From NCBI GenBank assembly GCA_002327255.1, contig DCUM01000063.1, positions 151-64,150 on the forward strand: 64,000 nt of DNA, in the 5' to 3' direction. The position numbers were made by a program, and so were the translations under genes. Source of the DNA: a bacterium UBA2214 (lineage in GTDB: Bacteria; Zhuqueibacterota; Zhuqueibacteria; Residuimicrobiales; Residuimicrobiaceae). How positions within the stretch are numbered: the stretch's first letter is position 1; each line of letters opens with the position of its first letter. The notes under the pieces are model-generated. The model was not told the DNA's origin. It searched no databases and worked only from the letters and a program-made list of their open reading frames with translations. Shown piece by piece: positions 51,829 to 64,000 of this stretch.

Positions 51829-53118
51829 TCAGATCGTCGTGCCGTCTGCAACCACCGCATCCTTGGTGATGATGACGATTCCTTTGCTGATCCATATACC
51901 CTCGTCTTTCCGGGAAGCATCCTGTATTTGTTCGCGATTGATGATCGTGACATTTTTTCCGATGCGTGCATTTTTGTCGACGATGGCCCGTTTGATGCGG
52001 CAACCGGCGCCAATACCGACGAATGGCCTGTGCGCCGTTATATCCGACTCGACTTCTTCCATGGTCTGGTAATAATCTGCACCCATGACCAGACAATCCT
52101 CGAGGAACCCCCCCCTGTCGATCCGACTGCGGATGCCGATAATCGAGTGTTGAATGTCCGCGCCGGTGATGATGCAGCCATCACAGATCATGGATTGCAC
52201 AACATGGCAATCACTGATCATGCTCGGGGGTAAAAACCGCGGTCTGGTGTAAACCGGAAAATCAACATCGAAAAAAGTAAAGGTCGGCGCCGGCAGATTC
52301 AATAATTGCATATTCGCGTTATAGAAGGACTCTATCGTCCCGATGTCTTCCCAGTATGCTTTGTGCAAATAGGCCTTGATGCGCAGATCATGGACTGCGG
52401 AGGGTATGATCTCCTTGCTGAAATCTTTGTACCGGGATTTTTCCTGCAACAGTCGCGTCAAGACTTCCTTCCTGAAAACATAAATGCCCATGGAGGCTAT
52501 GAACGGCTTGCTCTGCAGCAGGGTCTCGTCCAGACCCAAAATCCCAGGCTGTGCCGCCATTTCCAGCAATTGCGCCTCTTTGGGCTTTTCGCGAAACGCC
52601 TGGACATCCCCATGTCGATTGATTTTTAGAATGCCAAAATCCGACGCAGACGCCTGCGAAACGGGGACGACGGAAATGGTCACATCGGCACCGGATTCGC
52701 GATGGTAGTGAATGAACGGCCGATAATCCATGCGATAGAGATGATCTCCGGAGAGAATCAAAAACTCATCGATCTTGTGTTCTGCGAAGGTGGCGACATA
52801 TTGACGAACCGCATCCGCTGTTCCCTGAAACCAGTCCGAGTTCTCATGGGTCTGCTGTGCGGCCAGTATCTCCACAAAACCTTCGCTCAATGGAGAGAAA
52901 GAATAGGTGCGGGCAATGTGACGGTTCAGCGAAGCGGAGTTGAATTGGGTCAACACATACATCTTTTGAATGCCCGAATTGATGCAATTGCTGACGGGGA
53001 TATCGATAAGACGATACTTCCCGGCGAGAGGAACTGCGGGTTTGGCCCGCAGTCTTGTGAGCGGGTATAGTCGCGTACCCCGTCCGCCACCCAATATGAT
53101 GGCAAGGACTTTTCGCAT
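51829..53118 (-). CDS. glgC: Glucose-1-phosphate adenylyltransferase
   Basis: [23 protein letters not shown] and [13 protein letters not shown] GlgC motifs. Start at the ATG at 53118. Confidence 0.85.
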
Positions 53119-53238
53119 AACAGGCCCTTTGGTTTCCAAGATGCATGCGCATACCGTGTGGATTTGTGCCAAAATAATTATTTACAATCACAAAGTCAAT
53201 AACAAGTTATGTCCGTTGCACGCGCGGTACGCGTGGCG

Positions 53239-54927
53239 CTAAAATCCCACCATTTGCGCCAGCTCGGGAGGAATCGGCATGTTTCTGTCCTGCAGCATGC
53301 GCAGGCACGCTCTGGCCGATTCAAGCCGGTTATTCTCGTAGAACAACACGATCAAATTGTAGTAAGCAGAAGCGAAATTGCCGTCGAGCTGGATGGTCTT
53401 CTCCCAGGCGTTCGCCGCGTTGTCGATGCAGCCCTTTTTATAGTTCAAAATACCCAGATTGAAATATACATTGGCATAAAACGGATTAATGGTCGCTTCC
53501 CGGACGAAAAGGGACTCCGCCGCCGCCAGCTGGTTGTTATCCATGGCGATGAGCCCCAAATTCATATTCGCCATGGGCTCCTCCGGATTCAGGGCCAGGG
53601 CCCTGCGAAAATAGTGCGCGGCACGCTCGTGATCACCTTCCAGATAGAGCATGGCGCCGAGGTTGCGCTGCGCCAGCGGGGAATGCGGAGAATGCAAAGC
53701 GGCATTGTTCCAGAAGACGAGCCGGTTCTTAAAGTGCGGCACATGACGGATCGTCAGGATGGACATGGTCAAAAGGATGATCACACCCGTCATGATGATC
53801 CGCTTCGTGGAGAGGTCGAGCCCTTTGAGCAACCCACTGATGATGAGAAAGATCCCGATGATGGGAAGATAGGTGCGGTGCTCCAAAAAGTTCCCCAAAA
53901 TATCCGCATTGGGTCTTATAAATGAGGGTATGATGAAGAGTAAAAACCAGACCGCCCCAAAAGCAATCATCATCCAATCCGCGGTTGCCCTCCGCCACCA
54001 CGCGCCCAGAATCAATAGCGCCATGGCGGCAACACCATAGAGACAGGTCGTATCCAGCATCGTTGGCAATACGGAGAGATTGAACGGGAAAAAAATCTTG
54101 CCCAAAAATTGCAATAAAACCGGAAGGCTTATCCAGGTGGAATATATCATTTGCATAAAACTGTATGAGACAGGATGAACCATGGCTGCAGAACGCATGA
54201 CCAGGTAGAGCAGCGCGACCAGACTCCATCCCAATCCCAACGGCAGCAAGAACGCCTTTGGCTTTTCCGGGCGTACGATTAAATAGAGATACACGATGCA
54301 CACCACAACAAAGAGCAGGACGGTCTCCTTGGTGAACAGCGCCAGTGCAAAAAAGAACACGTGCAGCGCATAAAAGGACCATCGCGGCCTGCCCAGATAA
54401 TGGAGCAGCATTAAAAAAGAGAGCAGGACAAACAATGTCAACAGGGAATCGTTTCTCCCGGGAACCCAGGCCACCGCTTGACTCAACACCGGGTGGAGGG
54501 TGAAGAGCAGGGCAAAAAATACGGCCATGCCGCGAGCGATTGTCAGCCTGCGCAATACAATAAAGATCAACCAGGCGCAGAGGATATGGATGATGAGATT
54601 GGTAGCATGGAAAGGAAAAAGAGACGCCACCCCAAATTGGCCATCGAGGATGAAGGAGGTCGTCAACAGCGGCCGGTAGTAGGCATCGTGATAACCAAAA
54701 AATACATCTTCCTTGAACGCGTAGACAATGTTGCTGAAATGGCGCAAGATGTGCTGATTTTTCAGGATGAGTTCGTTGTCATCCAGAAAGGTATAATCAT
54801 AATAGAGCGTTCTGCCATACAAGAGGAGCGTCGCCAGGATAATGAGCGCCAAAATCAACAGCGGCATCCAATCGCGCCGCCGGGCGCCGGGCTTGGCACT
54901 CCTCTCTTTTTTTCGATTTTTCTTCAT
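53239..54927 (-). CDS. TMTC/PMT-like polytopic membrane protein with C-terminal TPR repeats (DUF1736-like)
   Basis: About 11 TM helices followed by TPR repeats ([19 protein letters not shown]). GGAGG Shine-Dalgarno upstream of the start. Confidence 0.65.
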
Positions 54928-54968
54928 CCCAAAGACCTCCGTACCTGAACATAAAATTTAACGAATAA

Positions 54969-54985
54969 TTGCAATTTTTGCACCA
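54969..54985 (-). promoter_or_regulatory. Sigma54 (-24/-12) promoter candidate upstream of the TMTC-like gene
   Basis: The minus strand reads TGGTGCAAAAATTGCAA, compared with the consensus TGGCACG-N4-TTGCA: GG and GC correctly spaced, with one mismatch in the -24 element. It lies about 40 nt upstream of the ATG. Confidence 0.4.
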
Positions 54986-55188
54986 CTTTGCTGCGGCACC
55001 CCCCAATGGATAACCGGCAACAGGCCCGCCTTACCCCTGAACACTTCGATCACCGGAAAATGCCAAACCAAGACCAATAATAACAAAACGATAAATTGTT
55101 CGCTGCTTGACAGCTTTGCCGCGCGGCAAAAACCGGGAAAACGCGGTTACAAAATCTATAAACTGTTAATAGTTATTAAGTTAAATCA

Positions 55189-55220
55189 CCCCAAAGGGCG
55201 GCTGGCCTTTGGGGTTTTGT
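55189..55220 (+). promoter_or_regulatory. Intrinsic-terminator-like hairpin in a divergent intergenic region (possible sRNA 3' end or attenuator)
   Basis: CCCCAAAGG-gcggctgg-CCTTTGGGG followed by TTTTGTGCCTTTT, with no upstream protein-coding gene on this strand. A TTGACA lies at 55108-55113. Confidence 0.3.
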
Positions 55221-55466
55221 GCCTTTTGCCGATTTCAGGAAACACCTCCCTCGGGCATGACGACGCACGGCAAACCGGGGCATACTCCTTTGACGCTGTT
55301 TCCCGGCTGCCCCACATGCTGCCGCCGTCGCGGCGGGATGAGATGCGACGCTTCAGCCCCTTGCGAAAATTCTCTTTTGTTCAAAAAAAGATTGAAAGAT
55401 TATTCCCAGTTGGCTATATTAACGTATTGAATAAACAGATGCAACGCCAAAATCCGGGAGATCAAG

Positions 55467-57050
55467 ATGAACCCTGTCCGTCTATCCATGATATTTTATG
55501 CGCCAGCACAATTACCCTTTTCCGAAGCGTCGCTGCAAAACATGGTGGCGTCCCTGCAAAACCAGTATAGCCAAAATTTTGAAATTATCTTTGCAGGCGA
55601 AAACCCCGCCATGGAAAATTTAGCCCTAAAAAATCAGTTTACCTATGTCCCGGCAAGCCTGGACCATAAGGCCAAAGCCCTCAATGCGGCCTTGCAACAC
55701 GCCCACGGTGATTACATTCTCTTGTGCAACAATCTGGCCCATGCGCTGGAATTTAAAAGATCGGCCAGCAAATTTTATATCATGGCCATGGATCGGCATC
55801 CCGAAACCGCGCTGTTGTACACCGATTATGATCTCATGGACAACGGCGTTCGCAAGGAGCGCAAACTGCTGGAGTGGCACAATGGCCGCCTCACCGACAG
55901 CTGGGATATGGGTTACTGTCTCCTCTTCAGCAGGGCCTTTCTGCAATCGGTTGGCAACTGCGACGAGGCTTTCGCCTTCAATCCTGTCTATGATTTGCGC
56001 CTCAAGGCGTTTGAGACCGGAAAGATCATGCACATTTCCAACCGCTTCAACGGGGTCCCCTATCTGGCCCATGCCGCGGCAAAAGGGCTGGATGTTTTTG
56101 CCTATTTGAAGGCCGGAAAGGAAGTGCAAATCGAAGCGGAAAAAGTGGTCACCGGACACCTGCGGCGCATCAAAGCCTATCTGGCGCCCGGACAGAATTA
56201 TCACAAGGTCACCTATTCCGCGGAGGAGGAGAAATCCTTCGCAAAATGCATCGCCGCTGTGGTCATTCCCGTTTTTAACCGTCCCGAGTTCATCTGCTCC
56301 GCCATCGAATCGGTGCAGGCGCAGACGGTGCAGAACATCGAAATCGTCGTGGCCTGCAATGGCGGCGATGAGGATCCCACGGTTGCCGCCGTGCAGCGCT
56401 ACCTGCCGGGTGGTGATCGCTACCGGGCCGAAAAACCATCCGTCCGGCTGATGGTCCATGACATGAACGTTCTCGGTCTCTGTTTCAACGATGCCTTGCA
56501 GACTTCCAGCGCCAAGTATTATATTCAACTCGATTCCGATGATCTGCTTTTCCCGGATGCGGTGGAGAAAATACTCAAGGTGTACGAAGAAGATGATCAA
56601 ATCGGCATGGTGATCGGATCCTATCAGGTCTTTGAGAAAACGGCCGCTGGAGAGGTGATCCCGGTTCTCGTTGATGGCAAACCCTTTATCGTCACCCATG
56701 ATGAATGGAGCGAGGAGAACGGCCGCAACAATCTCTTGCGCATCGGCGGCGCGGGCGCGCCCCGTTCCATCAAAATCAAGGTTCTCGGGGAACTCGGCTG
56801 GTTCGGCATGAACGATGCCCCCTACTCGCGTAATTATGGCGAAGATTATGAACTGGTGAACAAATGCGCGGAAAGATACCGCATCGGCCGCGTCTGGGAG
56901 CCCATCTACAAGGTAGTCCGGCACGCCGGCGGCACCGATCATATGATCGATCAGGTCACCATTGATGTCAACGATAACGCCAAAGATCATATGCGCCTTT
57001 ACGCCCTGCGGCGGCGGCAAATCATCAATGGCATCTCCCCAACCGTATAA
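55467..57050 (+). CDS. Glycosyltransferase family 2 protein (two GT-A-like modules)
   Basis: AAVVIPVFNRPEFICSAIESV...QLDSDD GT2 motifs in the second module, and an N-terminal degenerate GT-A-like module. Confidence 0.75.
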   Translation: MNPVRLSMIFYAPAQLPFSEASLQNMVASLQNQYSQNFEIIFAGENPAMENLALKNQFTYVPASLDHKAKALNAALQHAHGDYILLCNNLAHALEFKRSASKFYIMAMDRHPETALLYTDYDLMDNGVRKERKLLEWHNGRLTDSWDMGYCLLFSRAFLQSVGNCDEAFAFNPVYDLRLKAFETGKIMHISNRFNGVPYLAHAAAKGLDVFAYLKAGKEVQIEAEKVVTGHLRRIKAYLAPGQNYHKVTYSAEEEKSFAKCIAAVVIPVFNRPEFICSAIESVQAQTVQNIEIVVACNGGDEDPTVAAVQRYLPGGDRYRAEKPSVRLMVHDMNVLGLCFNDALQTSSAKYYIQLDSDDLLFPDAVEKILKVYEEDDQIGMVIGSYQVFEKTAAGEVIPVLVDGKPFIVTHDEWSEENGRNNLLRIGGAGAPRSIKIKVLGELGWFGMNDAPYSRNYGEDYELVNKCAERYRIGRVWEPIYKVVRHAGGTDHMIDQVTIDVNDNAKDHMRLYALRRRQIINGISPTV

Positions 57051-57076
57051 ACAATTCCCAATGGCAGAGGAGTCCT

Positions 57077-58447
57077 GTGGCAGAACTGAAAAATCTCATG
57101 ATATCCGTCTCCGGCGTGCGTGGAATCGTCGGGGATGGCTTCACCCCGGATGTCGCGTTGCGATTCGCCCAGGCGTATGGCAGTCACTTCGGGCCGGGAC
57201 GGATCGTGGTCGGGCGCGATTCGCGCGTGACCGGCGACCTGATCAAATACGCTGTCTGGTCCGGACTCCTGGCGACCGGGTGCGATGTCGTCGATATTGG
57301 CATGACGACGACGCCCACCACCGCGATGGCTACGGAAAGAGCGGAAAACAGCGGCGGCATCATCATCACCGCCAGCCACAATCCGCGGGAGTGGAATGCC
57401 TTGAAATTGCTCGCGCCGGACGGACTTTTTCTCAATCCCGAGGAAGGCGCCCGCATTCTCGAACGCGTCCGCCAGGAAGATTTCCGCTTCGCGGCCTGGC
57501 ATGAGGTTGGCACGGTGCGCCCTTATGCCAGGGCTGCCGAGGATCATATCGCCAGCGTCATAAACTTGCCGCTCATCGATGTCACCGCCATCCGCAAGCG
57601 GGGTTTCAAAATCGTCGCCGACCCCTGCAACGGCGCCGGCGGCACGATTCTGCCCGAGTTTCTCCAGGAGCTGGGCTGTGAGGTCATCTACCTCAATCTG
57701 GAACCCAGCGGCCATTTTCCCCGCAGCCCGGAACCCGTTCCGGAAAATCTCGGGGATCTCTGCGCAGCGGTCGTCAAACACCGCGCGGATCTGGGCATCG
57801 CCGTCGATCCGGACGTGGATCGCCTGGCATTGGTCTCCGAGAAAGGCGTCCCTTTGGGTGAGGAGTACACCCTGGCGCTGGCGGTTGAATTTGTCCTCGC
57901 GCACACACCCGGCGATGTCGTCGTCAATGCTTCGACTTCCCTGGTCATCGATGACCTTGCACGCCAATACGGCGTCCGCGTGCATCGTACCCCTGTCGGC
58001 GAAATTCATGTCGCCAGCAAAGCGCGACAAAGCGGCGCGGTGATAGCCGGCGAAGGGAACGGCGGTGTGATCCTCCCGGCCCTCCATCTCGGCCGCGACG
58101 CCATCGCCGGCATTGCCCTGATACTCCAGCATCTGGTGGAAAAATCAAAACCCCTCTCGCAAGTCCATGCCGACCTGCCACAGTACGTAATCGTGAAAGA
58201 CAAGATCACGCTGCCCTTCGGCGTGGACGCCAGGCGCCTGGTTGCGCGTCTGACCGAAGCGCACCGCTCCGGTCCTATTGATTTGACCGATGGACTCAAG
58301 TTGCTGTATGACGCGTCATGGGTGCATATCCGCGCCTCCAATACGGAACCCATCGTTCGCGTCATGGCCGAAGCGCCCAGCGCGGAAGAGGCGCAAAATC
58401 GTGTTGCCGCCCTCAAGGCGGAATTCGCTCGATTAACAATGAATTAG
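57077..58447 (+). CDS. alpha-D-phosphohexomutase (phosphoglucosamine mutase/phosphomannomutase family)
   Basis: Active-site TASHNP, the N-terminal GVRGIVG motif, and a length typical of GlmM. Confidence 0.8.
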   Translation: MAELKNLMISVSGVRGIVGDGFTPDVALRFAQAYGSHFGPGRIVVGRDSRVTGDLIKYAVWSGLLATGCDVVDIGMTTTPTTAMATERAENSGGIIITASHNPREWNALKLLAPDGLFLNPEEGARILERVRQEDFRFAAWHEVGTVRPYARAAEDHIASVINLPLIDVTAIRKRGFKIVADPCNGAGGTILPEFLQELGCEVIYLNLEPSGHFPRSPEPVPENLGDLCAAVVKHRADLGIAVDPDVDRLALVSEKGVPLGEEYTLALAVEFVLAHTPGDVVVNASTSLVIDDLARQYGVRVHRTPVGEIHVASKARQSGAVIAGEGNGGVILPALHLGRDAIAGIALILQHLVEKSKPLSQVHADLPQYVIVKDKITLPFGVDARRLVARLTEAHRSGPIDLTDGLKLLYDASWVHIRASNTEPIVRVMAEAPSAEEAQNRVAALKAEFARLTMN

Positions 58448-58470: not shown

Positions 58471-60858
58471 ATGGCTGATTATGAAAAACTGGGACTGTTT
58501 TATCTGGGAAAAACATACGATACCGCCAAAAAACAACTTCTCGATGATCTGCTGCTCTACGATTCCAAAGATCTGGTGACCCATGGCGTCTGCATCGGCA
58601 TGACGGGCAGTGGCAAAACCGGATTGTGTATCGGTCTGCTGGAAGAAGCCGCCATCGACAATATCCCGGCTTTGATCATCGATCCCAAGGGGGATATGAC
58701 CAATCTCATGCTCTCGTTTCCGGGCCTCTCCGCGGCCGAATTTGCCCCGTGGATCAATGTGGATGATGCCCGGCAGCAGGGACAGAGTCCGGAGGCCTTC
58801 GCAGCCGCACAAGCGGAAATATGGAAAAATGGTCTGGCGCAATGGGGACAAGATGGCGCACGCATTCAAAAATTGCGCGATGCGGCGGATTTTACCATTT
58901 TTACCCCGGGCAGCACCTCCGGCGTTCCCGTCTCCATTCTCAACAGTTTCGTGTGTCCCGGGGAAGAAATCGTCCAGGATCGCGAAGCCGTCGGCGATCT
59001 GATCTCGACCACCGTAACGGGACTGCTGGGCCTGATCGGCGTAAATGCCGATCCCATCAAAAGCCGTGAACATATCCTGGTTTCCAATATTTTCTATCAT
59101 TTCTGGCAAAATGGACAGAATCTCGATCTCGCCTTGCTCATCAATGCCATCCAGACGCCGCCTTTCGAACGCGTCGGCGCCTTTGCGGTCGATTCCTTTT
59201 ACCCGGCCAGGGAGCGTTTTGAACTGGCACTTGCATTCAACAATCTTCTCGCCGCGCCGGGATTCTCCACCTGGCTGACGGGAGAAGCGCTGGACATTGG
59301 CACGCTCCTCTATGGAAAAAGCGGCAAACCGCGCATGTCCATCTTTTATATCGCCCATCTCAGCGATTCCGAGCGGATGTTTTTTGTCACCCTGCTTCTC
59401 AATCAGATCGTTTCCTGGATGCGCGCCCAACCGGGCACCACCAGTCTGCGCGCGATTTTATATATGGATGAGGTCGCGGGCTATCTGCCTCCCGTGGCCG
59501 CGCCGCCATCCAAAAAACCCCTCATGATCATGCTCAAACAAGCCCGTGCGTTTGGCGTCGGCGTGATGCTGGCCACCCAGAATCCCGTCGATCTCGACTA
59601 CAAGGCGCTCTCCAATACCGGGACCTGGTTCATCGGCCGGCTGCAGACGCAACAGGACATCGACAAGGTGCTCAGCGGCCTGCGCTCCAGCGCCGGAGAC
59701 CTCGATCCCAACCTGAGCAAATCCATCGCCTCTCTGGGAAAACGCGTTTTTCTCATGAAAAACATCCACGAGAAGGAGCCGGTCATTTTTCAAACCCGCT
59801 GGGCCCTCTCCTATCTGCGCGGCCCGTTGACGCTGGCGCAAATCAAGCAATTGACCAAAGCGGCACACGTATCGTCCCCGGCCCAGGCAGGTGAACGGGC
59901 CGTGACGGCCCCGGGGCCGCAATTACGGCCGGCCATCCCGCCGCAGATCAAGGAGTTTTTTGCCCCGGTGCGCGGCGCCAAAGCGGCCCAGGCCAGGCTC
60001 CTGTACCGGCCGGTCCTCTTTGGCATCGCCGATGTCCATTTCGGCGCCTCAACGAACCGGCGTTATACGCAATGGACACCCGTCCTGGAGGGTGCCGTCC
60101 CGGTGGACTGGGACCAGGCACGGGACACCGTTCTCACAGATGCCGATCTGGAGAAAAATCCACTGCAGGGCGCGCACTTTGATAAACTGCCCGCCAGCGC
60201 GGCCCGGCCTGAAAGTTACAAGCGTTGGGCCGCGGAGTTTGCCGATGCCCTCTTCAGGAATGCGCAACTGGAATCCTATAAAAGCAGCTCCCTGAAAATA
60301 GCCTCCCATCCCGGGGAAAACGAGAGAGACTTTCGTGTCCGCATCTCCCACATTGCCCGGGAAAAAAGAGATGCTGCCGTGGAGACGCTGCGCAAGCGCT
60401 ATGCGACCAAAGAAGCAACCCTGGAGGATCGCATCCAGCGCGCCCAGCAAAAGCTGCAAAAAGAGAAATCCGATTTCCGTACGCAGAATGTGCAAACAGC
60501 GGTTTCCCTCGGCACCACGCTGCTCGGCGCCCTGTTGGGTCGAAAAACCATATCCACCACGACGCTGAATCGGGCGGGAACCGCCATGCGCAGCGGCATG
60601 CGTTCGGCCAAGGAGCGCGGCGATATCGGCAGTGCGGAAGAGAGCCTGGATGTCCTGCTGCAGCGGCGCGCCGACTTGCAGACGGAACTGGCGCAGGAAA
60701 TCGCCCTGATCGAAGAGCAGACCGATCCCATGCAGCAGCGCCTGGAAGTGACGGCGGTGCGCCCGAGGAAAAGTGATATCGATATCCGCTTCACCACCTT
60801 GCTGTGGCTTCCTTTCTGGCAAACGGATGGCGGGGATCCGCAACAGGCCTTTGAATGA
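58471..60858 (+). CDS. HerA/FtsK-superfamily NTPase, DUF853 (YjgR-like), with a C-terminal coiled-coil extension
   Basis: N-terminal THGVCIGMTGSGKTGL Walker A and IIDPKGD (YjgR/HerA-like), Walker B LYMDEVAGY, and an ATQNP motif. ATG at 58471 lies 23 nt after the mutase stop; the track ORF upstream of that is not coding. Confidence 0.7.
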   Translation: MADYEKLGLFYLGKTYDTAKKQLLDDLLLYDSKDLVTHGVCIGMTGSGKTGLCIGLLEEAAIDNIPALIIDPKGDMTNLMLSFPGLSAAEFAPWINVDDARQQGQSPEAFAAAQAEIWKNGLAQWGQDGARIQKLRDAADFTIFTPGSTSGVPVSILNSFVCPGEEIVQDREAVGDLISTTVTGLLGLIGVNADPIKSREHILVSNIFYHFWQNGQNLDLALLINAIQTPPFERVGAFAVDSFYPARERFELALAFNNLLAAPGFSTWLTGEALDIGTLLYGKSGKPRMSIFYIAHLSDSERMFFVTLLLNQIVSWMRAQPGTTSLRAILYMDEVAGYLPPVAAPPSKKPLMIMLKQARAFGVGVMLATQNPVDLDYKALSNTGTWFIGRLQTQQDIDKVLSGLRSSAGDLDPNLSKSIASLGKRVFLMKNIHEKEPVIFQTRWALSYLRGPLTLAQIKQLTKAAHVSSPAQAGERAVTAPGPQLRPAIPPQIKEFFAPVRGAKAAQARLLYRPVLFGIADVHFGASTNRRYTQWTPVLEGAVPVDWDQARDTVLTDADLEKNPLQGAHFDKLPASAARPESYKRWAAEFADALFRNAQLESYKSSSLKIASHPGENERDFRVRISHIAREKRDAAVETLRKRYATKEATLEDRIQRAQQKLQKEKSDFRTQNVQTAVSLGTTLLGALLGRKTISTTTLNRAGTAMRSGMRSAKERGDIGSAEESLDVLLQRRADLQTELAQEIALIEEQTDPMQQRLEVTAVRPRKSDIDIRFTTLLWLPFWQTDGGDPQQAFE

Positions 60859-60864
60859 GTGGAT

Positions 60865-61284
60865 ATGGGGCACTTCACGCTCATAGAACATACCGCAGAT
60901 GCCGGGATTCAGGTGGAGGCCTGTTCGCTTAAGGACCTCTTCCACACCGCCGCCCAGGGCATGATTCATCTTGTCTGTCCGCATGGAAGGACAGCTCAAA
61001 CTGAAATTCATTCCATCACCGTTTGTGGCGAAGATCCCGCCGAATTATTGGTGAATTGGCTCTCTGAATTGAATTATCTGTTTCAAGTCGAACAATTCCT
61101 TTTCGCTGAATTGCATCATTTTGAAATAATCAGTAACCGCTTGTCAACAACCGTGGGGGGAGAGCGCATCGACCCCCTGCGGCATCCACTGCGTGCTGAA
61201 ATCAAAGGTGTCACCTATCATAAAATGAACGTGGAGCAAATAACCCCGGGGAAATGGCACGCTTTGCTCTATTTTGACCTGTAA
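60865..61284 (+). CDS. Archease (RtcB activator/chaperone)
   Basis: N-terminal FTLIEHTADAGIQVEA and C-terminal EIKGVTYHKMNVEQ archease signatures. It starts 7 nt after the NTPase stop. Confidence 0.85.
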   Translation: MGHFTLIEHTADAGIQVEACSLKDLFHTAAQGMIHLVCPHGRTAQTEIHSITVCGEDPAELLVNWLSELNYLFQVEQFLFAELHHFEIISNRLSTTVGGERIDPLRHPLRAEIKGVTYHKMNVEQITPGKWHALLYFDL

Positions 61285-61307
61285 CCCGAGAGAAGGAACG
61301 CTCGACC

Positions 61308-61760
61308 GTGGGTCAACCGCGTATTCGCCCTGTCGCATTATGCGTGCTGAGCCGCAGCAACCGCATCCTGGTTGAGAAAAGTTACGACCACGTCAAACAA
61401 CAGATCTTCTTTCGTCCAACCGGTGGTGGTATCGAGTTTGGCGAGCCGGGTGCGAATGCCGCGATACGCGAAGTTGCCGAAGAGCTGGGCATACCCATCG
61501 GCCAGCCACATTATCTCGGTACGCTGGAGAATATCTTCGTCTGCCGCGGCAAAGCCGGGCATGAACTGGCGCAAATCTATCATTTGGAATTGTCCGAAAA
61601 TGACTGGGCAAACCAGGCGACCCTTGTCGTCGTGGAATCTCCCTCGCAAACACATATCCTGGAATGGCATGATCTGGCATTTTTTCATAGGGAGACCACG
61701 CCGCTCTATCCCCATGGACTTCTTGACCTTCTCCGCGGCCTGTCCATCCTCTCCTCATAA
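61308..61760 (+). CDS. NUDIX hydrolase
   Basis: Nudix box GGGIEFGEPGANAAIREVAEELGI. Confidence 0.8.
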   Translation: MGQPRIRPVALCVLSRSNRILVEKSYDHVKQQIFFRPTGGGIEFGEPGANAAIREVAEELGIPIGQPHYLGTLENIFVCRGKAGHELAQIYHLELSENDWANQATLVVVESPSQTHILEWHDLAFFHRETTPLYPHGLLDLLRGLSILSS

Positions 61761-61774
61761 CCGGTGAGGCAACC

Positions 61775-63214
61775 ATGCAAGAAAAGATGCAGCAAATTCA
61801 TGATTATCTTTTTGAAATACCCCGGACAGGCAAAATGCGCGTCCCGGCTCGTATTTATGCCTCTGCCGGCATGCTCAAAGATATCCTGAACGACAATGCC
61901 GCGGAACAAGCCGCTCATGTAGCCTGGCTGCCGGGCATCACAGGCTATTCCTATGCCATGCCGGACATTCACTGGGGTTATGGCTTTCCCATCGGCGGCG
62001 TCGCTGCCTTTGATATGGAGGAAGGCATCGTCTCGCCCGGTGGCGTGGGTTACGACATCAACTGCGGCGTCCGTCTACTGAGAACGGATCTCGATTATGA
62101 CACCGTAAAACCCAGATTGCCGCTCCTCGTGGAGGCCCTGTTTCGCGCAGTCCCGAGCGGGGTTGGTTCCACCGGAGCGATCAAGTTGAGTCTGAATGAA
62201 GAAAAACGCGTCCTGCAGCAGGGCGCGACATGGGCAATTGAAAACGGTTTCGGCCGCGGCGAAGACCTTGACAAGATCGAGGAAAACGGCGTCATGTCCT
62301 CTGCAGATCCGGAGATGGTGAGCCAGCACGCCCTGGAGCGGGGGCGGGCGCAATTGGGAACATTGGGGTCGGGCAATCATTTCGTCGAAGTGGGCGTCGT
62401 CAGGGAGGTTTTTGACGCCGGCGCCGCCGCTGTGCTGGGCTTGCGAAAAAACCAGGTCACGGTCACGATTCACACCGGTTCGCGCGGCCTGGGGCATCAG
62501 GTCTGCGATGATGCCATCAAAGTGATGTTGCGCGCGAGTCAAAAATATGGCATCGAACTGCCGGACCGCCAACTCTGCTGTGCCCCGATCCAGTCGCCTG
62601 AGGGGAGACAATACCTCGCGGCCATGGCCAGCGCCGTCAATTTCGCCTTTGCCAACCGGCAGATGATCACCCATTGGGTGCACGAGGCCATCCTGCGAAC
62701 CCTCGGCATCAGCGCCCGGGATCTGAACATGCAAGTGGTCTATGAGGTGGCGCATAATATTGCCAAGATCGAGACCCATACGTTCGCAGGCATAAAGCGG
62801 CAGTTATGTGTACACCGTAAAGGCGCCACCCGGGCCTTTGGACCCCATCACCCGGAAATCCCCGCAGCCTATCGCGAGATCGGCCAACCGGTGCTCATTC
62901 CCGGCGATATGGGCCGTTATTCCTATGTGCTCACCGGCACGGAGAGAGCCATGCAGGAGACGTTTGGATCGACTTGCCATGGCGCGGGGCGGCTGATGAG
63001 TCGCACCCAGGCGATCAAAAAAGGCCGGGGACGCTCCCTGACGCAAGAACTCGCAGCACGCGGCATCATCGTCCGCGCTTCCAGCCGCGCGACTCTGGCG
63101 GAAGAAGCCCCGGAAGCCTATAAAGATGTCTCCCAGGTTGTGGACGCTGTTGTCGGCGCAGGCCTTGCGAAGAAGATCGTCAAACTCCATCCCATTGGCG
63201 TCGTCAAAGGGTGA
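61775..63214 (+). CDS. rtcB: RNA-splicing ligase RtcB (3'-phosphate/5'-hydroxyl RNA ligase)
   Basis: GYGFPIGGVAAFD, NCGVRLL, HTGSRGLGHQV and STCHGAGR RtcB motifs. Confidence 0.9.
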   Translation: MQEKMQQIHDYLFEIPRTGKMRVPARIYASAGMLKDILNDNAAEQAAHVAWLPGITGYSYAMPDIHWGYGFPIGGVAAFDMEEGIVSPGGVGYDINCGVRLLRTDLDYDTVKPRLPLLVEALFRAVPSGVGSTGAIKLSLNEEKRVLQQGATWAIENGFGRGEDLDKIEENGVMSSADPEMVSQHALERGRAQLGTLGSGNHFVEVGVVREVFDAGAAAVLGLRKNQVTVTIHTGSRGLGHQVCDDAIKVMLRASQKYGIELPDRQLCCAPIQSPEGRQYLAAMASAVNFAFANRQMITHWVHEAILRTLGISARDLNMQVVYEVAHNIAKIETHTFAGIKRQLCVHRKGATRAFGPHHPEIPAAYREIGQPVLIPGDMGRYSYVLTGTERAMQETFGSTCHGAGRLMSRTQAIKKGRGRSLTQELAARGIIVRASSRATLAEEAPEAYKDVSQVVDAVVGAGLAKKIVKLHPIGVVKG

Positions 63215-63525
63215 GTTGCGTCACGAAACCCATTCCGTCCCATTAAAAATTTGTTGACTTTTTCTCGGCATAATTCTATATTTATATACCATCCTATCAA
63301 TCAGCCGTGGCCTGGTAATGGCCATTTATATTCATATTGCGGCTTGCGGCCGATTCTTTATAATATCTACGTACTGACAACTGCCGCCCCATGGACGGCC
63401 CACAAATCCTCGAAACGCCTTTGGCCTGAACCATATAATCCATATCGTTGCGATAGTGTTTTTCGTCCAATTCACCCGGGTGACCATCTGCGTGCGCACG
63501 TGTGTGATTTCATTTCATTTTTAAG

Positions 63526-64000
63526 GAGTGACCAGGATGGGCTTGCCATCATCATCCTCTTCTTTGCCGATAAAATTGGCACAAATCATCCCTGATTACG
63601 ATGGGTACGACGACCGCACCCTGCGAAAGCATTCGGACCAGAAAATCCGCCTTTGCATGATCGGCAAAATAGAAAATATACTGCGTCATTTGAGCGGCTT
63701 GCCTGCGGCGCCACACGAAGAAGACAAGCGGCGGCTTTCTGATTTGTCACAAAGCACACATCGCAAGCTGATCACCATCAGCGAAAGTCTCAGAGACCCG
63801 ACCTATGCCGGAAATCCTTTTTTCGCCCTCGACCGGATTCCGGAAAAACGCCTGGAGAACATCTACAACCATGAAGCCAGTATGCTGGCCGGTCTGGGCG
63901 GCATTGAAGAAGAGATCGCGGCCATGATGCAACAAAAAATGGAGAAAGTGTTGTTTGAAGATCACTTTCTCCATATCACCGACTTTATCGATAATTTTAA
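63526..64000 (+). CDS. Hypothetical protein, 3'-truncated by the window end
   Basis: ATG at 63526 lies 8 nt after a TAAGGAG Shine-Dalgarno site. The frame is open to the window end (at least 158 aa, MGLPSSSSSLPIKLAQIIPDYDGYDD...). It is absent from the ORF track because there is no in-window stop. I recognise no family. Confidence 0.4.

Follow-up and report, generated by a model that had tools for sequence, protein, structure and literature searches.

Do an RNA ligase and its activator, encoded in one tight string with a HerA-type ATPase and a Nudix hydrolase, form an expanded RNA-repair module, or do they only share an operon? The question arises from a 64,000-nucleotide stretch of the genome of the bacterium UBA2214 (contig DCUM01000063.1; hereafter the window), in which an initial annotation had proposed that positions 58471-63214 encode an NTPase-assisted system for RNA repair. 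We find that the locus holds the known archease-RtcB pair in a lineage-specific operon and is a variant arrangement of a known operon class. We put at roughly 55% the probability that the ATPase is merely co-expressed with the ligase pair and is functionally independent of it.

All four genes lie on the + strand. They encode, in order, a HerA-clade P-loop NTPase (58471-60858, 795 amino acids (aa), ATG start), archease (60865-61284, 139 aa), a Nudix hydrolase (61308-61760, 150 aa, GTG start) and RtcB, a 3'-phosphate/5'-hydroxyl RNA ligase of the archaeal/Thermus type (61775-63214, 479 aa), with intervening gaps of 6, 23 and 14 nt. Directly upstream and on the same strand are genes for a glycosyltransferase of family 2 (GT2) and a phosphohexomutase, with gaps of 26 nt between these two and 23 nt to the NTPase. 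Coordinates were taken from an open reading frame (ORF) listing and from reading of the sequence. Both the ORF listing and an independent gene prediction for the source contig (ENA ERZ27315072 k141_453637), which reproduced the six-gene layout, confirm the orientation and spacing given in the initial annotation. From spacing and strand, the six genes from GT2 to RtcB would share one transcription unit, and a functionally mixed one, because the same tight string begins with sugar-metabolism genes (GT2 and the phosphohexomutase, of the PGM family).

The ligase and its activator are both full-length, lie on the same strand and have intact catalytic motifs, as expected of the pair that had been proposed. 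Archease matched Pfam PF01951 (5e-36, residues 4-138), and its nearest solved structure is that of Pyrococcus horikoshii archease (4n2p, 4e-16). RtcB matched Pfam PF01139 (8e-176, residues 45-479) and aligned to Thermus thermophilus TTHA1785 with 594 bits and to P. horikoshii RtcB (PH1602) with 580 bits; the motifs GYDINCG, GSGNHF, HTGSRGLGH and CHGAGR are present and conserved relative to both. Its score against the bacterial NCBIfam model PRK09588 was 183 bits (cut-off 407). RtcB enzymes join 2',3'-cyclic-phosphate or 3'-phosphate ends to 5'-OH ends by way of RtcB-GMP and RNA(3')pp(5')G intermediates, with guanylylation made faster by archease (PMC3973293, PMC4604427, PMC10944509). We infer that the core of the window is an ordinary archease-RtcB pair, with a GTP/Mn-dependent, archease-stimulated ligase activity predicted by homology.

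Archease-RtcB operons for tRNA splicing or RNA repair have been described in P. horikoshii, Thermus, Pelobacter and Syntrophus (Desai et al. 2014, PMC3973293; Desai et al. 2015, PMC4604427). The window shares with them the same two full-length proteins, the conserved catalytic motifs, and the strand and order of the genes, but differs in having a Nudix gene between the pair, a HerA-clade ATPase gene fixed directly upstream throughout its clade, and sugar-metabolism genes in the string. The rtcBA operon of E. coli with its sigma-54 activator RtcR (PMC7790460) likewise encodes a ligase of the RtcB family; the window, by contrast, has neither the RtcA cyclase nor a CARF-domain RtcR, and its RtcB belongs to the longer archaeal/Thermus type, the partner of archease. 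Since RtcA and CARF-domain RtcR were absent from the relatives of the window as well, the claim that this is not a standard rtc operon holds. Two relatives (loci L002 and L003) encode a sigma-54 response regulator downstream, but it carries a receiver domain rather than a CARF domain. Rfam and tRNA scans of the window, for instance for a Y RNA near RtcB, returned nothing.

The NTPase was more difficult to place. Its Pfam matches were both marginal, with HerA_C at 25.2 bits (cut-off 22; residues 354-438) and DUF87 at 23.4 bits (cut-off 23.2), and from approximately residue 480 onward no Pfam family matched. The HerA assignment holds despite these scores because it is supported by two further comparisons: a profile built from 24 sequences matched a HerA central-domain protein among PDB sequences (8wiv, 2e-8), and in a Foldseek search of an AlphaFold monomer model (pLDDT 74.5) against the PDB, the top 50 matches were all HerA or HerA-like (E 1e-11 to 1e-8). 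These included protomers of Sir2-HerA, HerA-NurA, D. radiodurans HerA, TdpAB and the C-domain of DndH (E ~1e-11). Profile and modelled fold together confirm that the protein belongs to the HerA clade of P-loop ATPases. The initial annotation had called it DUF853/YjgR-like; its relationship to HerA stands, but the DUF853/YjgR label appears too specific, as the E. coli-type YjgR structure 11kk reached only E = 0.033 over 82 residues against the NTPase profile.

Several features of the protein follow from the alignment and the model. All 24 orthologues share the same Walker A (GMTGSGKTG) and Walker B (LYMDE) motifs. Ahead of the P-loop (residues 43-50) the model has just two beta strands, at residues 9-31, probably less than a complete N-terminal HAS-barrel would need, and a beta domain spans approximately residues 490-610. 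The AlphaFold model confirms the long C-terminal coiled-coil that had been predicted, with helices 618-689 and 697-751 making up an antiparallel coiled-coil hairpin that has a conserved Gly/Ala-rich tip. Invariant residues at this tip are A677, G681, L685, A687, G690, R691 and K692.

To assess the conservation of the gene order, we examined 172 loci carrying an orthologue of the NTPase (L001 being the locus of the source contig), searching each by tblastn and with hidden Markov models (HMMs) built for archease, RtcB and the Nudix family of the window. The triad NTPase-archease-RtcB was found in 15 of them (L001-L003, L088-L093, L095, L097, L168, L169, L172 and L173), and in two others (L112 and L174) the sequence ends within archease, leaving RtcB unscorable. 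These loci represent nine lineages that are non-redundant at 90% identity, plus L091, L095 and L168, and their NTPases are 60-83% identical to that of the window. The genes are thus more than coincidental neighbours in one genome, the triad recurring in at least nine non-redundant lineages. In a neighbour-joining tree of 159 full-length orthologues, the 15 triad-bearing NTPases were monophyletic, with an unlinked sister group (L004, L007, L094, L096, L098-L103 and L161). Because the triad-bearing NTPases form one clade, the linkage would have arisen once and then passed on by vertical descent; judged from this tree, it has a single origin, in a lineage related to candidate division KSB1.

Outside the clade, the linkage was not seen. 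Neither tblastn nor HMM searches found archease near the NTPase in any of the 129 non-redundant orthologues (0 of 129), which come from 13 or more phyla; the downstream flank reached 1 kb or more in 104 of them and 3 kb or more in 86. Across all searched loci, archease was found in the triad clade and L175 only, and RtcB in the clade, L175 and L120/L167 only. Another KSB1 genome (L018) encodes the NTPase unlinked. L120 and L167 represent one genome type from a distant lineage, with an NTPase 43% identical to that of the window and RtcB 1.9 kb upstream of it (L167:4652-10499, L120:1-4867); opposite-strand genes for an 8-oxoguanine glycosylase (OGG) and a metallo-beta-lactamase separate the two. 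We considered this arrangement as an independent operonic linkage and rejected it because of the two opposite-strand genes. The DUF853-archease-Nudix-RtcB order, whose conservation across genomes the initial annotation had suggested testing, is thus conserved in part: the NTPase, archease and RtcB genes are syntenic elsewhere, but in one clade only, and the Nudix gene is sporadic.

The wider family of the ATPase offers a second line of evidence. It has more than 8,000 database matches, many of them full-length at 54-60% identity, and its orthologues of approximately 800 aa, 47-56% identical, are spread over at least 13 phyla (Nitrospirota, Acidobacteriota, Chloroflexota, Planctomycetota, Gemmatimonadota, Verrucomicrobiota, Bacteroidota/Ignavibacteriota, Myxococcota, Desulfobacterota, Pseudomonadota, Actinomycetota, Bacillota and KSB1). 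A search with the C-terminal domain gave 2,504 matches among 1.84 billion representative proteins, all of them full-length proteins of approximately 800 aa or apparent C-terminal fragments, with no new architecture. All-against-all clustering of neighbours at 167 loci revealed no gene that is conserved beside the ATPase. Among 82 co-directional downstream neighbours, a Pfam census found POR (5 of 82), sensor kinase domains (4 of 82) and MgtE (3-4) most often, and no RNA-related family. The ATPase family is large, uncharacterized and strongly conserved, and usually stands alone as a gene. Its strong conservation without an assigned role makes it worth studying in its own right. One 51%-identical orthologue (L035, JACXTO010000086.1) is located on a 4.7-kb contig that binning assigned to a Methanomassiliicoccaceae archaeon; either the gene was transferred horizontally into an archaeon or the binning is wrong.

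These distributions bear on whether the HerA-like ATPase of the clade has been recruited as an NTP-driven accessory of RtcB-archease. Such an accessory might remodel or thread damaged RNA or ribonucleoproteins, or recycle the ligase, by analogy with DDX1 in the eukaryotic tRNA ligase complex, with the Nudix protein trimming nucleotide-linked RNA ends. We consider this possible but rather unlikely. As well as the single origin of the linkage and the absence of archease from unlinked orthologue loci, the ATPases of the clade have the same length and architecture as their unlinked orthologues, with no clade-specific domain, and neither the clustering nor the census gave the family an RNA-related neighbour. 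Unrelated sugar-metabolism genes sit in the same operon, and HerA-type rings are known as DNA translocases, according to the descriptions of the Foldseek matches.

Several observations nevertheless favour recruitment and weigh against functional independence. The junction between NTPase and archease is kept in every member of the clade, down to 60% NTPase identity, with gaps of -17 to 95 nt, that is, from overlapping to closely spaced genes. The triad also stays intact as a block while both of its flanks differ between two sub-clades. In sub-clade A, to which the window belongs, the order is GT2-PGM-NTPase-archease-(Nudix)-RtcB-170aa-YjbQ, and GT2 is kept upstream of the triad in these relatives only; in sub-clade B, it is iPGM(-)/metalloenzyme(+)-NTPase-archease-RtcB, followed by a rubrerythrin or ferredoxin-like (Fer4) gene. 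This retention through one rearrangement of the flanks is the best evidence that the triad is a real unit. Other adjacent pairs, such as iPGM-metalloenzyme, are likewise kept across the clade, which weakens the synteny argument without removing it, and the archease-RtcB part of the triad was already known to be constrained (PMC3973293).

A further point in favour of recruitment comes from a sister lineage. The nearest named homologues of the RtcB of the window are from candidate division KSB1 (64-73% identity), and in the RtcB tree one of these (L175; GCA_003854975.1, RQOH01000300.1; 73% identical) branches as the sister of the triad clade. Its locus (L175:4416-11218) encodes archease, an SNF2 helicase of 1,046 aa (SNF2_assoc, SNF2-rel and Helicase_C domains), RtcB and a protein of 590 aa; a HerA-like gene is absent from this archease-RtcB locus. 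The 590-aa protein has an HprK-like Walker A motif (GDTGAGKSE), read by eye, and no Pfam, NCBIfam or PDB match. The SNF2 insertion suggests that NTP-driven partners could be recruited repeatedly to the RtcB ligase, and it is mainly because of this different motor ATPase inside the same operon that we do not dismiss the idea of a recruited accessory. The archease-SNF2-RtcB operon is a different expansion of the archease-RtcB operon and apparently an undescribed one. We found no published description of a HerA-type ATPase or SNF2 gene adjoining archease-RtcB, in a search that did not extend to Burroughs and Aravind 2016 (NAR 44:8525) or Iyer et al. 2004 (FtsK-HerA).

Eukaryotes provide a functional parallel, as eukaryotic RtcB works with the helicase DDX1 (PMC8668186) and, in metazoa, DDX1 and archease cooperate with RTCB (PMC8668186, PMC10944509). 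The metazoan tRNA ligase complex and the clade thus both combine a ligase, archease and an NTP-dependent motor, here by gene adjacency alone. The motor is an SF2 DEAD-box helicase in metazoa, however, and a HerA/FtsK-type ATPase here (SNF2 in L175), and physical association has been shown for the metazoan complex whereas the association in the window is known from genes.

On balance, we favour co-expression of an independent ATPase. In one uncultured, KSB1-related lineage, the archease-RtcB pair would have become fixed directly downstream of a HerA-clade ATPase gene, and in the sub-lineage of the window the pair would also have come to lie behind two sugar-metabolism genes, giving one mixed transcription unit. 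The ATPase would keep the role that it has where it stands alone, presumably as a ring translocase, rather than act as a dedicated subunit of the ligase, and the Nudix gene would be a sporadic, dispensable insertion between archease and RtcB. Because the string mixes sugar metabolism, an orphan ATPase and RNA ligation, adjacency in one lineage is not evidence of a shared pathway. Of the proposed NTPase-assisted repair module, the clade-wide triad remains; the single origin, the lack of linkage elsewhere and the sporadic Nudix gene count against it. The case is a caution that a tight gene string conserved throughout a clade can have a single origin and be kept by descent. Were a functional link true, a motor ATPase that assists RtcB would be known from bacteria for the first time, and a HerA-like ATPase family of at least 13 phyla would gain a role, its first functional handle. 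The most useful leads are this orphan ATPase family and the archease-SNF2-RtcB operon of the sister lineage.

The Nudix hydrolase matched Pfam PF00293 (1e-9), and its Nudix box (GX5EX7REUXEEXGU) is intact (G-GIEFG-E-PGANAAI-RE-V-A-EE-L-G-I), read from the translation as GGIEFGEPGANAAIREVAEELGI. No NCBIfam subfamily model reached its cut-off: the RNA-acting subfamilies scored 29 bits (NudC, cut-off 158) and 19.5 bits (RppH, cut-off 116), and YtkD scored 20.6 bits (cut-off 154). The best PDB match was an ADP-ribose pyrophosphatase/MutT structure (4kyx, 2e-6). A Nudix gene lies between archease and RtcB only in the window, in its 99%-identical twin L169 and in L168. The Nudix protein of L168 is 56-58% identical to those of the other two, and the loci fall on different sub-branches of the RtcB tree. 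The gene is present in 2 of approximately 11 clade lineages, with none in L002, L003, L088-L097 or L172; archease directly adjoins RtcB in L002, L003, L172 and the triad loci among L088-L097. A 45%-identical Nudix homologue outside the clade has an unrelated gene context. The Nudix gene is thus sporadic, and has been either gained on two occasions or lost more than once.

The initial annotation had suggested that the Nudix enzyme acts on 5' caps, which fits poorly because RtcB needs 5'-OH, not 5'-phosphate, ends (PMC3973293). If the enzyme belongs to the RtcB pathway at all, hydrolysis of abortive 3'-pp-G caps or sanitising of GTP would, speculatively, be more plausible. There is a precedent in aprataxin, which de-caps the 3'pp5'G ends made by RtcB (PMC4499129, PMC4381079). 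By analogy, a Nudix enzyme could remove abortive guanylate caps by cleaving the pyrophosphate link, although aprataxin belongs to the HIT family (PMC4499129) and the enzyme of the window to the Nudix family. Taken together with the SNF2 operon, this leads to a broader and more doubtful idea: that KSB1-related RtcB-archease pairs have repeatedly recruited motors (a HerA-clade ring ATPase in one lineage, SNF2 and a P-loop protein in another) as bacterial counterparts of DDX1, with Nudix proofreading RNA(3')pp(5')G.

The same cap chemistry raises the possibility that the substrate is DNA, with a HerA-like translocase and RtcB acting on breaks with 3'-phosphate and 5'-OH ends, RtcB capping or sealing them and Nudix removing 3'-ppG. 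RtcB does guanylylate DNA 3'-phosphate ends, and the resulting caps need a de-capping enzyme (PMC4381079, PMC4499129). The nearest structural relatives of the ATPase are the DNA-translocating HerA of HerA-NurA and related complexes, and an OGG glycosylase gene lies between RtcB and the ATPase orthologue in L167/L120. We nonetheless regard a role in DNA-end repair as very unlikely: no NurA or Mre11/Rad50 nuclease was found beside the ATPase in approximately 150 loci, our literature search found no physiological DNA role for RtcB, and the single origin and lineage restriction of the linkage apply here equally.

HerA ATPases are also parts of the Sir2-HerA and DUF4297-HerA defence systems, and the initial annotation had framed the locus as a possible conflict system, in which a HerA-type motor would be coupled to RNA repair as counter-defence against ribotoxins. 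PADLOC HerA models did match the ATPase core (E 1e-8 to 1e-5), and the model for mad8 of the MADS system matched NTPase residues 12-99 with E 7e-11. The mad8 match (window 58504-58767) spans the N-terminal strands and the P-loop, covers profile positions 6-85 of 314 and beats the HerA models there. All of these matches are partial, however, and confined to the shared ATPase core. More generally, the NTPase resembles the HerA translocases (HerA-NurA, Sir2-HerA, DUF4297-HerA, TdpAB and the DndH C-domain) in its RecA-like P-loop core and Walker A/B motifs, with Foldseek values of ~1e-11 over ~470-560 aligned columns, but unlike the HerA-based defence systems it has no effector partner or mobile context. 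Neither the window nor approximately 150 orthologue loci have an effector gene next to the ATPase, phages gave no match and plasmids just three weak partial ones, and whereas defence genes are patchy, this family shows high conservation and a vertical distribution among phyla. The flanking genes are housekeeping genes (PlsY, FakA, GHMP kinase, NTP-transferase, transketolase and iPGM), without mobile elements. The PADLOC scan, together with the searches of plasmids and phages, led us to reject a defence system, which we regard as highly improbable.

The remaining features concern the boundaries of the string and its neighbours. Upstream of GT2, a consensus scan found a sigma-70-like promoter match, TTGAAA-17-TATATT (55392-55420, +), which is the only + strand match before 63254, with none between GT2 and RtcB; the scan used the consensus only and found 8 sites against 5.3 expected, so the evidence is weak. 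A terminator-like hairpin with a T-rich tail (63307-63325, +) lies 93 nt past the RtcB stop, found by a scan for the pattern only, which gave 17 sites against 10.7 expected. The first gene of the string (55467-57050, +) encodes a 527-aa GT2 protein with two GT2 stretches (Pfam PF00535, 3e-24). The second (57077-58447, +) encodes a 456-aa phosphohexomutase that matches Pfam PGM_PMM I-IV and fits the archaeal-type GlmM model NCBIfam TIGR03990 (527 bits, cut-off 439). The string begins inside a sugar-nucleotide/lipid housekeeping cluster (window 51829-58447, with a called gene at 51829-53118 on the - strand; L001:1-9977), in which divergent genes for NTP-transferase, GHMP kinase, FakA and PlsY are followed by a PMT_2/TPR protein and GT2.

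The NTPase gene of sub-clade B is directly preceded by one for a 233-aa protein of the 'Metalloenzyme' superfamily, of phosphomutase type (L097:7269-7970, L172:7270-7971 and L174:7280-7981). The upstream gene of sub-clade A also encodes a phosphomutase, of the unrelated PGM/PMM family, and the recurrence of a phosphomutase at this position in both sub-clades is probably a coincidence. At L168:5108-7502, gene calling split the NTPase into two genes (541 and 245 aa); the contig, to judge by its name, probably comes from a long-read assembly. Archease, Nudix and RtcB are intact downstream, and the split reflects either a frameshift or pseudogene or an assembly error. Finally, the window ends within a conserved hypothetical gene on the + strand (63537-64000, from gene calls on L001, L002, L003 and L168), whose 170-aa product has no Pfam or NCBIfam match. 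Missing from sub-clade B, this gene (L001:15067-15579) lies between RtcB and YjbQ in every relative from sub-clade A.

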